This document shows, piece after piece, positions 5,278-17,324 of a stretch of DNA of 64,000 nucleotides. A program made the position numbers and the translations under genes. The notes under the pieces are model-generated. The model did not search any database and was not told the origin of the DNA. It saw only the letters and a list, made by a program, of their open reading frames with translations. Position 1 is the stretch's first letter. Every line of letters starts with the position of its first letter. Source of the DNA: Candidatus Micrarchaeia archaeon (GTDB lineage: Archaea; Micrarchaeota; Micrarchaeia; Anstonellales; J096); NCBI GenBank assembly GCA_041500865.1, contig JBGQMY010000003.1, positions 6,728-70,727 on the forward strand. Reading direction: 5' to 3'.

Positions 5278-5413
5278 TGCCAAGGGGGGGACTCGAACCC
5301 CCGACCTCTAGATGGCCCAAAGCGTGCCTATCATCGCCGTTTTCCAACGGCTCAGCACTCACAAAAGCGTGTTTTATGAGTCTAGCGCTCTAAGCCGGCT
5401 GAGCTACCTTGGC
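5278..5413 (-). tRNA. tRNA-Met/CAT-anticodon tRNA with ~60-nt intron at canonical 37/38 position
   Basis: Minus strand reads GCCAAGG-TA-GCTCAGCCGGCTTAGAGC-G-CTAGA-CTCATAA-[intron]-TCTAG-AGGTC-GGGGGTTCGAGTCCCCC-CCTTGGC-A. Confidence 0.75.
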
Positions 5414-11675: not shown

Positions 11676-12779
11676 TCATACGGCTAATTCCTTGGCAAAT
11701 AGCCTATTGAATCTTTCCACGACTCTTTTCCTGAAATTATAGCTATTTGCAAATCTGGCATAAGCAAGCCAGCCTTCCAGGCTTTTCACTATTTCTTCCC
11801 TGTTCATCTCTCCTTTATCGCATTTCCGTTTGAACATGTCAAGGCGCTCCCAGATTCTTCTGGCATTGCTCTTCTTGAGAAGCCGGTACCCATGAAAAAT
11901 CCTGAAGCCAAGAAATGCTATGCCCCGTTCCAATGGAATAATGCTGGACTTTTCAGGATGGAGCCTTATCTTGAGCCGGTATGCCAGAAACTCGCTTATT
12001 TCAGCGTTCCACATTTCAAGCATTTTCCTGTCCCTGTGCAGAATCACGAAATCATCCACATAGCGGATGTAATATCTGGCCCCAAGCCGCTCCTTTGCAA
12101 AATGGTCGAATCCGTTCAGGTATAGATTGGCAAAGAATTGCGAGGTCAGGTTTCCAAGGGGCATCCCTTTCCCATGAACTTCAGCTTTGTGGTTTGCCAA
12201 TATCATTCTTACCAATTGCATAATATCCGGATCCTTTATTTTACGGCTAATCATCTCCAATAGGATTTCATGTTCAACTGTCGCAAAATAATGCAGAATG
12301 TCCGCCTTGAGGGCATATCCGCAGCAAACGGATTCTTCATCGCTAGGCTCTTTTTCTGCTTTTGGCTTGCAGAAAGAGACCGCGCGCATGAACCGCTCCA
12401 GTCTCCGTATCGCATTATGCGTTCCCTTGCCTTTCCTGTTGGCAAATGAGTCAAAGATGAAATCCTTTTCAAAAATGGGCATTATGACGTTGCATAATGC
12501 ATGGTGCACAACGCGGTCCCTGAAATGGGACGCGCTTATTTTTCTGGTCTTTGGGTCCCTTACGAGGAATACAGTTGGCGGGCGAGGCGAATAGGCAAAT
12601 GCCTTCAGCTCGGATTCCAATTGCCTGAGATTATTTTCAAGATTGGATTCGAACTCAATTACATAATCCTTCAGCGTTTTCCTTTTTCTGGCTTTCTGAA
12701 ATGCAAGCTTAAGGTTTTCATAGGAGCAAACCTGCGGATAAAGATGCCTGTAGGATTTCATGGGTTTCGCCAAGCGCAC
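11676..12779 (-). CDS. diversity-generating retroelement (DGR) reverse transcriptase
   Basis: 367 aa; RT motifs incl. DGR-specific 'LGNLTSQFFANLYLNGFD' (replaces QG of intron RTs) and 'YIRYVDDFVI' (YxDD); TR lies immediately 5'; GTG at 12779 or ATG at 12761. Confidence 0.85.
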   Translation of the reverse strand: MRLAKPMKSYRHLYPQVCSYENLKLAFQKARKRKTLKDYVIEFESNLENNLRQLESELKAFAYSPRPPTVFLVRDPKTRKISASHFRDRVVHHALCNVIMPIFEKDFIFDSFANRKGKGTHNAIRRLERFMRAVSFCKPKAEKEPSDEESVCCGYALKADILHYFATVEHEILLEMISRKIKDPDIMQLVRMILANHKAEVHGKGMPLGNLTSQFFANLYLNGFDHFAKERLGARYYIRYVDDFVILHRDRKMLEMWNAEISEFLAYRLKIRLHPEKSSIIPLERGIAFLGFRIFHGYRLLKKSNARRIWERLDMFKRKCDKGEMNREEIVKSLEGWLAYARFANSYNFRKRVVERFNRLFAKELAV

Positions 12780-12790
12780 AGATAAATGCC

Positions 12791-13050
12791 CCTAGGGTGC
12801 AAGCCCAAGTCATTCCGAACGCATTGGACGGCCTGTAGTTCGCGTTGACGTTCTGCCTGTTGTTGCCGTTGTTGTTGACGTTGCGGACCAGAAGGCCTCA
12901 AGAGTAACCCGTCTGCCACAATGGCACTTTCGTGCCAACACCGCCGCTTCACGCTTTCAATCCATGATTTACTCAATGTCGCGGCTGAATCCCATGTCTG
13001 GCTTTAACCAGCACTGCAGACAGGTGTGTGGCCTAGGCTTGCACCCTAGG
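12791..13050. repeat. 15-bp perfect inverted repeats (cctagggtgcaagcc / ggcttgcaccctagg) bracketing TR plus ~135-nt spacer
   Basis: 12791-12805 is the exact reverse complement of 13036-13050; could form a long-range stem enclosing the TR RNA. Confidence 0.5.
12809..12898 (-). repeat. DGR template repeat (TR)
   Basis: ~90 nt homologous to 13315..13404; coding-strand reads …CGC AAC GTC AAC AAC AAC GGC AAC AAC AGG CAG AAC GTC AAC GCG AAC TAC…; all differences from VR are at TR adenines. Confidence 0.75.
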
Positions 13051-13076
13051 AATAGGGAAAAGGATGGAAAGCTTAT

Positions 13077-13988
13077 TTAAAGCGCTTTCCCTACCGCATC
13101 CAGGAATTCCCTGATTGGCGCTACGATCTGGGCGTCGATTATGCCAGGCATCCTGCCAACAGCGCTTACAGCCCTATTATATGCGGCTTTCAGCTCATCA
13201 GCCGAGATGCCGGGCACTTTGATAATCGTCTCTTTTTCAGCCGGTTTTCCTGACTGAACATTAGAGGCAAGAAGCGCCTGGATTTTTTCGGTGTCCCCTT
13301 CGGGGACTTCCAACGCCACCCCGAACGCACCGGACGGCCCGAAGTACGCGTAGACGCCCTGCCTGCCGTAGCCGAGGTCGTCGACGACGCGGACCAGAAG
13401 GCCCACATATGAAGAACCATTCAGCCTCCAAAGATATCTTGCATCCGGGCTTTGCGGCACCTTGTCTCCATGCGGAACGCCTGTTTCCTTATGCGGCATG
13501 TACAAGCCATCAGGACCTGGGAATTCTGGAACCGGTATCAGCCTGTCTTTTGAAATGTCCAAAACCATTGAATCTCCGTCTTTCTGGAAATCTTTTGAGG
13601 TTAGACCCAGTGCCACAAGCGCAACGTTCTTTTCGCCCTTATAATCCCCTGTTGTCGGCAAAACTATCCTTGAACCGTCTCCTGCGGAAAAGACTATCTC
13701 CTTTCCCAGTCTAACGCCTGGCTTTTCATAGGCGATTGAGGCGTCAACAGCGAAAGGCGTCATTGGAACCAAGCTTCTCCATGTCGCTCCAACGTTAAGC
13801 GCAACATCCGCTGTGTTATGGGATATGACTAGGCAATTGGTTCCATGCACATTGTTGAATTCCTCAACTAAAGGATGGGCATCAAAAAGCTTTGTTGTTC
13901 CGCTGTTCCTTAGAATCAGTATGTTCTTCTTTTGTCCGTTAGCCTCTAACTTTATCAGTTCCTTTCCAGCAATTTGGATTTGTGACAT
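13077..13988 (-). CDS. DGR target protein (variable protein; uncharacterised family, paralog of 59364..60158)
   Basis: 303 aa; contains the VR at aa ~196-225 (…VRVVDDLGYGRQGVYAYFGPSGAFG…); adjacent to TR-RT on same strand. Confidence 0.75.
   Translation of the reverse strand: MSQIQIAGKELIKLEANGQKKNILILRNSGTTKLFDAHPLVEEFNNVHGTNCLVISHNTADVALNVGATWRSLVPMTPFAVDASIAYEKPGVRLGKEIVFSAGDGSRIVLPTTGDYKGEKNVALVALGLTSKDFQKDGDSMVLDISKDRLIPVPEFPGPDGLYMPHKETGVPHGDKVPQSPDARYLWRLNGSSYVGLLVRVVDDLGYGRQGVYAYFGPSGAFGVALEVPEGDTEKIQALLASNVQSGKPAEKETIIKVPGISADELKAAYNRAVSAVGRMPGIIDAQIVAPIREFLDAVGKAL
13293..13307 (-). promoter_or_regulatory. GC hairpin 7 nt downstream of VR 3' end (IMH-associated stem-loop)
   Basis: gtcccc-ttc-ggggac: 6-bp GC stem, 3-nt loop, positioned as in characterised DGRs. 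Confidence 0.5.
13315..13404 (-). repeat. DGR variable repeat (VR) inside target gene
   Basis: Matches TR except ~20 positions, each where TR coding strand has A (TR AAC -> VR GTC/GAC/CTC/TAC/GGC/TTC codons). Confidence 0.75.
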
Positions 13989-17224: not shown

Positions 17225-17324
17225 GGGCTCGTAGCTCAGTCGGTAGAGCGACGGTCTTATATGGCGCGTTCTAGCACAAACCTAAGTTAGCCGTAGGTCC
17301 TGGGTTCAAGTCCCAGCGGGCCCA
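17225..17324 (+). tRNA. intron-containing tRNA, apparent anticodon TAT (Ile)
   Basis: GGGCTCG-TA-GCTCAGTCGGTAGAGC-G-ACGGT-CTTATA-[~27-nt intron]-A-GCCGT-AGGTC-CTGGGTTCAAGTCCCAG-CGGGCCC-A. Confidence 0.7.

Follow-up and report, generated by a model that had tools for sequence, protein, structure and literature searches.

A perfect 15-bp inverted repeat in an archaeal DGR locus forms part of a longer RNA helix, here called P0, whose two strands bracket the TR and whose pairing is maintained by compensatory base changes in related cassettes. We consider it fairly probable that the repeat is the core of a conserved helix in the RT-mRNA leader of Avd-less DGRs, and that this helix serves to hold the TR between two helices for initiation. 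The upstream strand of P0 lies at the beginning of an RNA that matches the Rfam family RT-16, whereas the downstream strand follows the TR and falls outside that model. The repeat itself was described in an initial annotation of the window, by which we mean the whole 64-kb stretch of DNA that was analysed; the longer helix, its conservation and its relation to RT-16 emerged from the analyses reported below.

Results

An Avd-less DGR in a DPANN archaeon

All parts of the DGR lie on the minus strand, and their coordinates are collected in Table 1. The open reading frame of the RT extends back to a GTG at 12779, and relatives begin at the Met equivalent to the ATG given as the likely start. The best solved relative of the RT is Bordetella bRT (8ub7 and related entries, E=8e-48, residues 2-349), which is matched over the full length, the next-best PDB matches being group II intron RTs (5e-20). 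The target gene, about 73 codons of which lie 3' of the VR, had no Pfam match, and its best PDB match was unconvincing (E=0.005). A comparison of TR and VR along their 88 nt showed mismatches at 20 of 27 adenines in the TR and nowhere else. The terminal motifs, GGGGU in the VR and GGAAU in the TR, show an IMH/IMH* contrast that was found here and in about 40 relatives. Furthermore, the hairpin on the 3' side of the VR is, judged by its sequence, a GRA-triloop target-site hairpin of the type described for nanoarchaeal DGRs.

With a DGR-clade RT, adenine-only differences between TR and VR, and an IMH/IMH* pair with a hairpin 3' of the VR, the locus is on sequence criteria a bona fide chromosomal DGR of a DPANN (Micrarchaeota-like) archaeon. 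Its neighbours are archaeal housekeeping genes (PAC2, TspO, Trm5/TYW2 and rubrerythrin). The closest relatives of the RT come from Micrarchaeota MAGs (59-74% identity), with others in Woese-, Pace- and Nanoarchaeota, and a search of viral contigs yielded no relatives. Relatives occur in samples of groundwater, peat or sediment, and in some of them the TR carries an insertion.

Table 1. Coordinates of the DGR features and of the associated RNA elements in the 64-kb window.
Feature	Positions	Strand	Basis
DGR RT gene, likely start ATG 12761	11676..12761	-	Pfam RVT_1 3e-17 and PDB match
P0 3' strand, containing the arm 12791-12805 and starting at U12812	12790..12812	-	
TR, with terminal IMH*-like GGAAU at 12816-12812	12811..12898	-	direct repeat with VR
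Match to Rfam RF03019 (RT-16), full model, positions 1-158	12899..13050	-	62.4 bits, gathering score 50, E=3.3e-7
P2 3' strand GCAGACGGGU, ending 8 nt before the TR	12907..12916	-	Rfam alignment, RNAalifold
P2 5' strand ACCUGUCUGC, closing the RT-16 core	13016..13025	-	Rfam alignment, compensatory changes in RNAalifold
CAC linker between P0 and P2 (C13028-A13027-C13026)	13026..13028	-	alignment, Rfam consensus CUACAC, RNAalifold
P0 5' strand, containing the arm 13036-13050 and ending at the near-invariant A13029	13029..13051	-	
TATA-like box TTTAAATA, overlapping the target stop codon	13074..13081	-	clustering of TATA-like boxes in relatives
DGR target gene, 303 aa	13077..13988	-	ORF list
Hairpin GUCCCC-GAA-GGGGAC, 11 nt 3' of the VR	13293..13307	-	sequence
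VR, with terminal IMH-like GGGGU at 13322-13318	13317..13404	-	direct repeat and comparison with TR

Avd or HRDC genes accompany most DGRs, but not all, and none was detected here. Profiles of Avd (PF05635) and HRDC gave no match among the 16 window ORFs that lie between about -7 kb and +6 kb of the DGR, a search confined to the 64-kb window. In addition, the two minus-strand ORFs that can be drawn through spacer and TR (12758-12976 and 12810-12941) had no Pfam match, and a phmmer search with an approximate Bordetella Avd query returned nothing useful. The initial annotation had described the cassette as lacking an avd gene and its spacer as lacking a convincing ORF, and had suggested searching the spacer with these profiles; our searches of the spacer and the neighbouring ORFs agree with it on both points. 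Across 53 related loci, no conserved ORF was found in the spacer-TR region, the longest stop-free stretches varying in strand and frame and mostly reflecting the TR itself. We therefore rejected a hidden accessory gene in the spacer, given the lack of a Pfam match and of any conserved frame or strand.

The absence of Avd also holds for 21 of the 22 relatives that were scanned (54 small ORFs). The only Avd-family ORF, L026:5476-5940 (PF05635, E=2.8e-16), lies 360 nt 3' of the RT in its locus, and neither the window nor any of the other 61 loci yielded a homologue of it. Avd-less DGRs as such are already known, architecture A accounting for 29% of DGRs (Wu et al. 2017, PMC5758913).

A longer helix extends the inverted repeat

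The two arms of the repeat, CCTAGGGTGCAAGCC (12791-12805, plus strand) and GGCTTGCACCCTAGG (13036-13050), are exact reverse complements, as the initial annotation had stated and as both a reading of the sequence and a pattern search confirmed. At the DNA level the repeat can be extended to 22 nt with 86% complementarity and is the longest inverted repeat of the region. In a k-mer scan of the entire 64 kb, no other perfect inverted repeat with arms 20-400 nt apart reached 15 bp. In 100 dinucleotide-preserving shuffles the mean number of such repeats was 0.01, with any at all in just one shuffle. Being unique in the window and having a near-zero expectation in shuffled sequence, the repeat is thus real and not a product of chance. 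Its arms bracket the TR, as first described, together with the non-coding stretch that reaches up to the stop codon of the target gene.

On the minus-strand RNA, G·U pairs extend the helix to 23 positions, so that P0 is longer than first noticed; it contains a single C·A mismatch (13031/12810). In line with the earlier suggestion that the arms could form a long-range stem, folding of the minus-strand RNA as a single sequence placed P0 in both the MFE and the centroid structure. The extended duplex has a predicted energy of -40.3 kcal/mol, compared with -8.8 and -5.7 kcal/mol for the local hairpins that the two arms can form. The first base of its 3' strand, U12812, is also the base at which TR/VR homology ends. 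On the other strand, the helix is followed by a short linker, in which A13027 is conserved in 53 of 53 aligned loci.

Two further roles for the helix were considered and set aside. A bulge-helix-bulge processing stem or circular RNA was dropped because the near-perfect helix in the window is free of 3-nt bulges, and a role as a target-site guide was rejected, the 5' strand being complementary to the flank of the VR over only 4 nt.

The spacer upstream of the TR is an RT-16 RNA

The 152-nt spacer between the upstream end of the repeat and the TR (13050-12899) matches the whole of the RT-16 model above its gathering score. It has the same orientation as the RT gene, whose start follows 138 nt after the match. 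In relatives too, RT-16 directly precedes TR and RT, as an Rfam scan showed for 19 of 20 loci and nhmmer for 54 of 62. The family belongs to a set of 19 ‘RT’ motifs that were discovered beside RT genes; their function was left open, the authors guessing at retrons or DGRs (Weinberg et al. 2017, PMC5737381).

The curated model stops where the TR begins and therefore does not contain the post-TR strand with which the upstream arm pairs in P0. Instead, Rfam draws the first 19 nt of the window's match (CCUAGG-GUGCAAG-CCUAGG, 13050-13032), in which the upstream arm lies, as a local hairpin, P1. Read from its 5' end, the RNA thus comprises the P0 5' strand with its near-invariant A, the CAC, P2 with the RT-16 core, 8 nt, the TR, the P0 3' strand and finally the RT start. 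The RT start codon lies 29 nt past the helix, with about 50 nt between it and the TR. The initial annotation had left open whether the stem would act in place of a structured spacer RNA or together with one. Since the spacer is an RT-16 RNA, the second alternative stands and the first does not: the stem works with a structured RNA, not instead of one.

P0 covaries in related cassettes

We then assessed the pairing in 53 distinct DPANN loci, using a gap-free alignment anchored at A|CAC of RT-16 and at AA|U at the end of the TR, in which position -k was compared with position +k for the 12 proximal pairs. Of all cells, 81.0% were paired, against 65.2±1.2% with shuffled partners. Cells changed on both sides numbered 153 against 66, and the covariation score was 0.557 against 0.280; none of these three values was reached in any of 500 shuffles. 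When the register was slid, only 24-46% of cells were paired. Changes on both sides were seen in 11 of the 12 pairs. At -2/+2, for example, 28 loci have C-G and 24 have U-A; -4/+4 is G-C in 35 and A-U in 12, and -7/+7 is U-A in 20, A-U in 15 and G-C in 4. The apparent invariance of A(-1):U(+1) is partly built into the anchor motifs. Exceptions are one distinct relative in which -1 is a C (L130/L131), and L070/L071, in which the usual 5' part is absent.

The 3' anchors of the 53 loci were chosen by eye from the motif at the TR end, and two further sets consequently serve as checks. In the 33 loci whose 3' anchor was fixed by the end of TR/VR homology, 81.1% of cells were paired, compared with 65.1±1.9% for shuffled partners. 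In a hold-out set of 26 further loci from metagenomes, whose anchors were assigned automatically and solely by the IMH*/IMH signature, 79.5% of cells were paired against 66.1±2.2%, the highest of 2000 permutations reaching 73.1%. A less guided test that replaced the anchored 3' segment by the 70 nt upstream of the RT yielded -22.5 against -20.6 kcal/mol, a small difference, though one reached in only 2 of 5000 permutations; because so loose a segment diluted the signal, the anchors were fixed independently through the TR/VR boundary and the hold-out test was added.

The distal part of P0 behaves in the same way, native partners giving -15.0 kcal/mol and swapped partners -9.4 kcal/mol. The net gain over local folding was -12.6 kcal/mol for native and -4.1 kcal/mol for swapped partners, and it exceeded 5 kcal/mol in 94% of native pairs. 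Furthermore, RNAalifold applied without guidance to six Micrarchaeota-type relatives predicted P0, the 3-nt linker and P2. It also drew an extra pairing between the J-segment and the TR (columns 167-173 with 261-267), which involves invariant bases only and which we do not claim. Finally, G·U combinations outnumbered A·C combinations by 57 to 35, or by 57 to 23 when the TR-coded position was left out, an excess that fits pairing, and selection, on the sense RNA.

The covariation analysis proposed in the initial annotation thus revealed compensatory changes both in the 53 related loci and in the 26 hold-out loci. Related cassettes without the inverted repeats had been named there as grounds for abandoning the stem. 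What we find instead is that the sequences of the arms differ between related cassettes while their pairing is kept.

A putative promoter would place P0 at the 5' end of the RT mRNA

The TATA-like box TTTAAATA precedes the first paired base of P0 by 29 nt. TATA-like hexamers also cluster in a set of 50 loci, where they lie at -29 to -26 relative to the beginning of the helix. We regard this box as the putative promoter of a transcript comprising RT-16, TR and RT. The usual spacing of archaeal TATA boxes would put the start of transcription at P0 or within a few nucleotides of it. From the position of the box and this spacing we infer that the transcript probably starts at the helix, in which case the RT mRNA would begin with a structured leader made up of RT-16 and P0.

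Local hairpin P1 and the long-range helix are alternatives

In most relatives the 5' strand of P0 is interrupted by one or two hairpins, which correspond to the top of P1, whereas the post-TR strand is continuous; the interruption turns the helix into a three-way junction. The window and several Micrarchaeota lack the inserted hairpin, which explains why the repeat seen here is long and unbroken. Because P0 and the base of P1 share nucleotides, they are alternatives to each other. In most relatives, the local hairpin and P0 compete for these bases, and both may form, the local hairpin possibly first, during transcription. The long-range form is favoured as the stable state by the pairs -1 to -3, by the distal extension of the helix and by the complementarity of the loops.

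Discussion

A model for template definition by P0

A junction of two helices at the template is a feature that this RNA shares with retron and Bordetella RNAs, and it is from this likeness that we infer what P0, P2 and the RT-16 core might do. The RT would bind the RT-16 core in cis, the core providing an RT-binding platform that makes Avd unnecessary, and the TR would be a loop held between two adjacent helices. P0 would bring the TR's 3' boundary to the active site of the RT and so probably sets where reverse transcription starts. Synthesis of cDNA would then begin at the adenines adjoining U12812 and run through the TR, until P2 stops it at the TR 5' end. Priming may use the 2'-OH of A13029 or A13027, which are candidate adenosines for this step. 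One point against the model is that the two TR adenines that adjoin the helix are always represented by GG in the VR. They behave as a fixed IMH*/IMH difference and not as mutagenised sites, so cDNA synthesis beginning at them would have to leave these bases untransferred.

More tentatively, RT-16 and P0 together could be a self-priming, Avd-independent and retron-like DGR template RNA in which the exchange of P1 for P0 serves as a checkpoint. The RT would bind the leader of its own mRNA, the helix would join the 3' boundary of the TR to a conserved adenosine (A13029 or A13027) in the active site, cDNA would be primed by the 2'-OH of that adenosine and halted by P2, and the switch from P1 to P0 would license reverse transcription only after the whole TR has been transcribed. 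We put this forward as a possibility that is somewhat against the odds; were it true, RT-16-type elements would link retrons and Bordetella-type DGRs architecturally.

Other explanations of the inverted repeat

P0 might be a regulatory or processing stem that has no part in the reverse transcription machinery, for instance a switch with P1 for translation of the RT, a protection of the 5' end of the transcript, or a mark for cleavage that releases the TR RNA. Such roles would suit a helix that lies in the 5' UTR of the RT gene and ends 29 nt before the start codon, and whose long-range pairing excludes the local one. For Bordetella, moreover, priming from a nick in the template RNA has been proposed (PMC5703328). 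However, the helix does not cover the region of the start codon, and the helix in the window has no bulge-helix-bulge motif. In about 40 loci, the first base of its 3' strand coincides exactly with the boundary of TR/VR homology, which points to a template-defining role. We judge a purely regulatory or processing stem to be unlikely.

We find it quite unlikely that the arms belong to two independent local hairpins, P1 (13050-13032) and a post-TR hairpin (CUUGGG-CUUGCAC-CCUAGG), which contact each other, if at all, only by kissing of the complementary 7-nt loops, the long-range repeat being a by-product. Each arm can fold on itself with the energies given above, the curated RT-16 model has a local P1, and the strands of P1 are mutually complementary in relatives. 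Yet the pairs -1 to -3/+1 to +3 lie outside the local hairpins and covary all the same, as the C-G and U-A loci at -2/+2 illustrate (28 and 24). The distal helix reaches 5' of the base of P1 in many relatives, and the loop bases are complementary in all relatives with a mini-P1. In addition, the extended duplex of the window exceeds the local hairpins in stability by about 26 kcal/mol, the average gain across loci being the -12.6 kcal/mol reported above. The long-range helix P0 remains the better account of these observations.

An action of the repeat at the DNA level, whether in recombination or inversion, in delimiting a mobile element or in forming a cruciform, is very improbable. In favour of such a role, the repeat is perfect over 15 bp and includes the palindrome CCTAGG, but there is no recombinase or transposase among the nearby ORFs, and the position of the repeat is fixed relative to the RNA motif and the TR boundary. 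Moreover, the arms remain complementary across 79 loci in which their sequences differ, and G·U pairs are preferred on the sense strand. A chance match, for which only the small size of the repeat speaks, is scarcely credible given an expectation of 0.01 per window in shuffled sequence and a pairing that is conserved and covaries.

Comparison with known systems

The idea of a TR-bracketing duplex, the RT-16 family and Avd-less DGRs are all already known. In the searchable literature we found no assignment of RT-16 to DPANN DGRs or placement of RT-16 upstream of the TR, and no covarying closing helix with the post-TR segment or permuted retron-like topology. On the reading preferred here, in which P0 closes the template, the orphan family RT-16 would gain a likely function and a corrected, larger structure, and a cis-acting RNA would be identified for a widespread group of Avd-less DPANN DGRs. 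The compact element, consisting of about 270 nt of RNA and an RT of 361 aa, is also a candidate for reconstitution and for the engineering of targeted mutagenesis.

Among gene-based descriptions, architecture A1 (Wu et al. 2017, PMC5758913) has the same order of target, TR and RT without an accessory gene; that classification is silent on RNA. The DGRs of Nanoarchaeota (Paul et al. 2015, PMC4372165) share with the present locus the IMH TGGGGT, the IMH* TGGAAT and the GRA-triloop hairpin. In the accessible text of that report, neither a structured RNA nor a closing helix is mentioned, and small basic ORFs between RT and target are flagged as Avd-like by pI and size only; such a small basic ORF is not conserved here. 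A survey that joined 40 nt upstream of the TR to 100 nt downstream of it (Handa et al. 2018) could not, with that window, have seen the helix described here, and its one entry from Woesearchaeota has only a 9-bp AU duplex.

The RNA of the Bordetella BPP-1 DGR, which comprises the avd 3' end, the TR and Sp (Rfam RT-10), offers a close structural parallel. There, as cryo-EM has revealed, Sp47-56 pairs with TR118-129, the priming A56 pairing with U118 beside the first templated base, and after a 2-nt linker Sp59-70 forms a duplex with avd upstream of the TR that stops synthesis and is required for it (10.1101/2023.10.23.563531). Both RNAs hold the TR as a loop between two linker-joined duplexes that arise from one continuous strand, and both have a terminal A:U pair beside the first templated base; in the present locus the parts occur in permuted order, as P0, CAC linker and P2. 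The differences are equally clear. In Bordetella, which cannot do without Avd, the continuous strand belongs to a structured spacer that binds RT-Avd and follows the TR. Here both that strand and the structured RNA precede the TR, and Avd is absent. The closing helix spans at least 22 bp and thereby far exceeds the 10 bp of the Bordetella template:primer duplex, a further point against the model. In Bordetella the cDNA is primed from the 2'-OH of an internal adenosine, for which A13029 and A13027 are at present candidates here. A template-bracketing duplex may be needed for reverse transcription in DGRs generally, and a permuted RNA may be able to supply it.

In retrons, the a1/a2 repeats insulate the ncRNA, and synthesis starts from the 2'-OH of a conserved guanosine that adjoins them (PMC8989520). 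The order of elements in the retron ncRNA (msr-msd) is the same as here, namely a 5' repeat, a priming purine, structured non-templating RNA, template and a 3' repeat, and in the present locus too the flanking repeats enclose structured RNA and template, with a conserved purine beside the stem. The locus nevertheless differs from a retron in having an RT of the DGR clade and not of the retron clade, a TR/VR pair with adenine-specific changes, and a conserved purine that is A and not G; no retron effector gene was found among the housekeeping neighbours. The resemblance of P0 to the a1/a2 repeats nonetheless provides a concrete and testable model of how the synthesis of cDNA might start and stop in a minimal DGR.

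A fixed difference between template and variable repeats

Comparison of the template repeat (TR) with the variable repeat (VR) showed that the final two or three TR adenines (GGAA|U, GAAA|U or CGAA|U) invariably correspond to G in the VR, both in the window and in about 40 related loci, and that this holds even where the position is a silent third codon position. As judged from the paired repeats, this is a fixed directional difference of the IMH/IMH* type and not random mutagenesis. No Pfam family matches the target protein itself, and no PDB entry is a convincing relative. Its VR is not C-terminal, being followed by about 73 residues, and the GAA-loop hairpin of the target gene lies within the coding sequence. 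Elsewhere in the window, two Rfam tRNA matches are probably intron-containing archaeal tRNAs.

Features of the window and the evidence for each
Feature	Position	Strand	Source or remark
IMH/IMH* difference	VR 13318-13322 vs TR 12812-12816	-	TR/VR comparison
Target gene	13077-13988	-	VR internal
tRNA, 100 nt	17225-17324	+	Rfam; not reported by ARAGORN
tRNA, 136 nt	5278-5413	-	Rfam; not reported by ARAGORN

Variation among related cassettes

Six related DGR loci in other genomes (L032, L028, L019, L013, L058 and L014) carry a hairpin insertion of 18-48 nt within the TR, 20-80 nt upstream of its end, that is missing from the matching VR, with perfect TR/VR homology on both flanks. The stems of these insertions show covariation, and the four insertions from Woese/Nano loci have CUCG-AAA-helix-CGAG in common. 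Since a copied insertion would disrupt the target gene on homing, either splicing removes it or the RT skips it, or else these DGRs lack activity. In the window, the TR is without an insertion of this kind.

The RT of six independent relatives (L026, L030, L031, L036, L044 and L048) is spread over two reading frames. The change of frame occurs at G-runs or (GA)n runs within a variable loop, roughly 450-650 nt from the start of the ORF. Programmed frameshifting or slippage could explain this arrangement, as could phase-variable on/off switching of the RT or errors in assembly. In the window, the RT is a single intact ORF.

Downstream of the L026 RT, starting after 360 nt, lies an ORF of the Avd accessory protein family (L026:5476-5940 (+); PF05635, E=2.8e-16). 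It is the sole such ORF found close to an RT-16-type DGR among 54 small ORFs from 22 relatives, and neither the window nor any of the 61 remaining genome loci has a homologue of it.

At L035, a second RT-16 + TR unit (L035:2534-2935), with its closing helix partly eroded, sits 1.2 kb upstream of the principal unit. A shortened RT start (METFTDLYTNICSGLGRA) and then a stop codon come next, which gives this second unit the appearance of a decayed DGR.

Two contigs that binning assigned to CPR bacteria, L051 (Candidatus Dojkabacteria) and L006 ('bacterium'), also carry RT-16-type DGRs. Both of these DGRs have the same closing helix as the others of this type, pairing the RT-16 start with sequence just past the TR. 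Horizontal transfer or mis-binning may account for their occurrence there.
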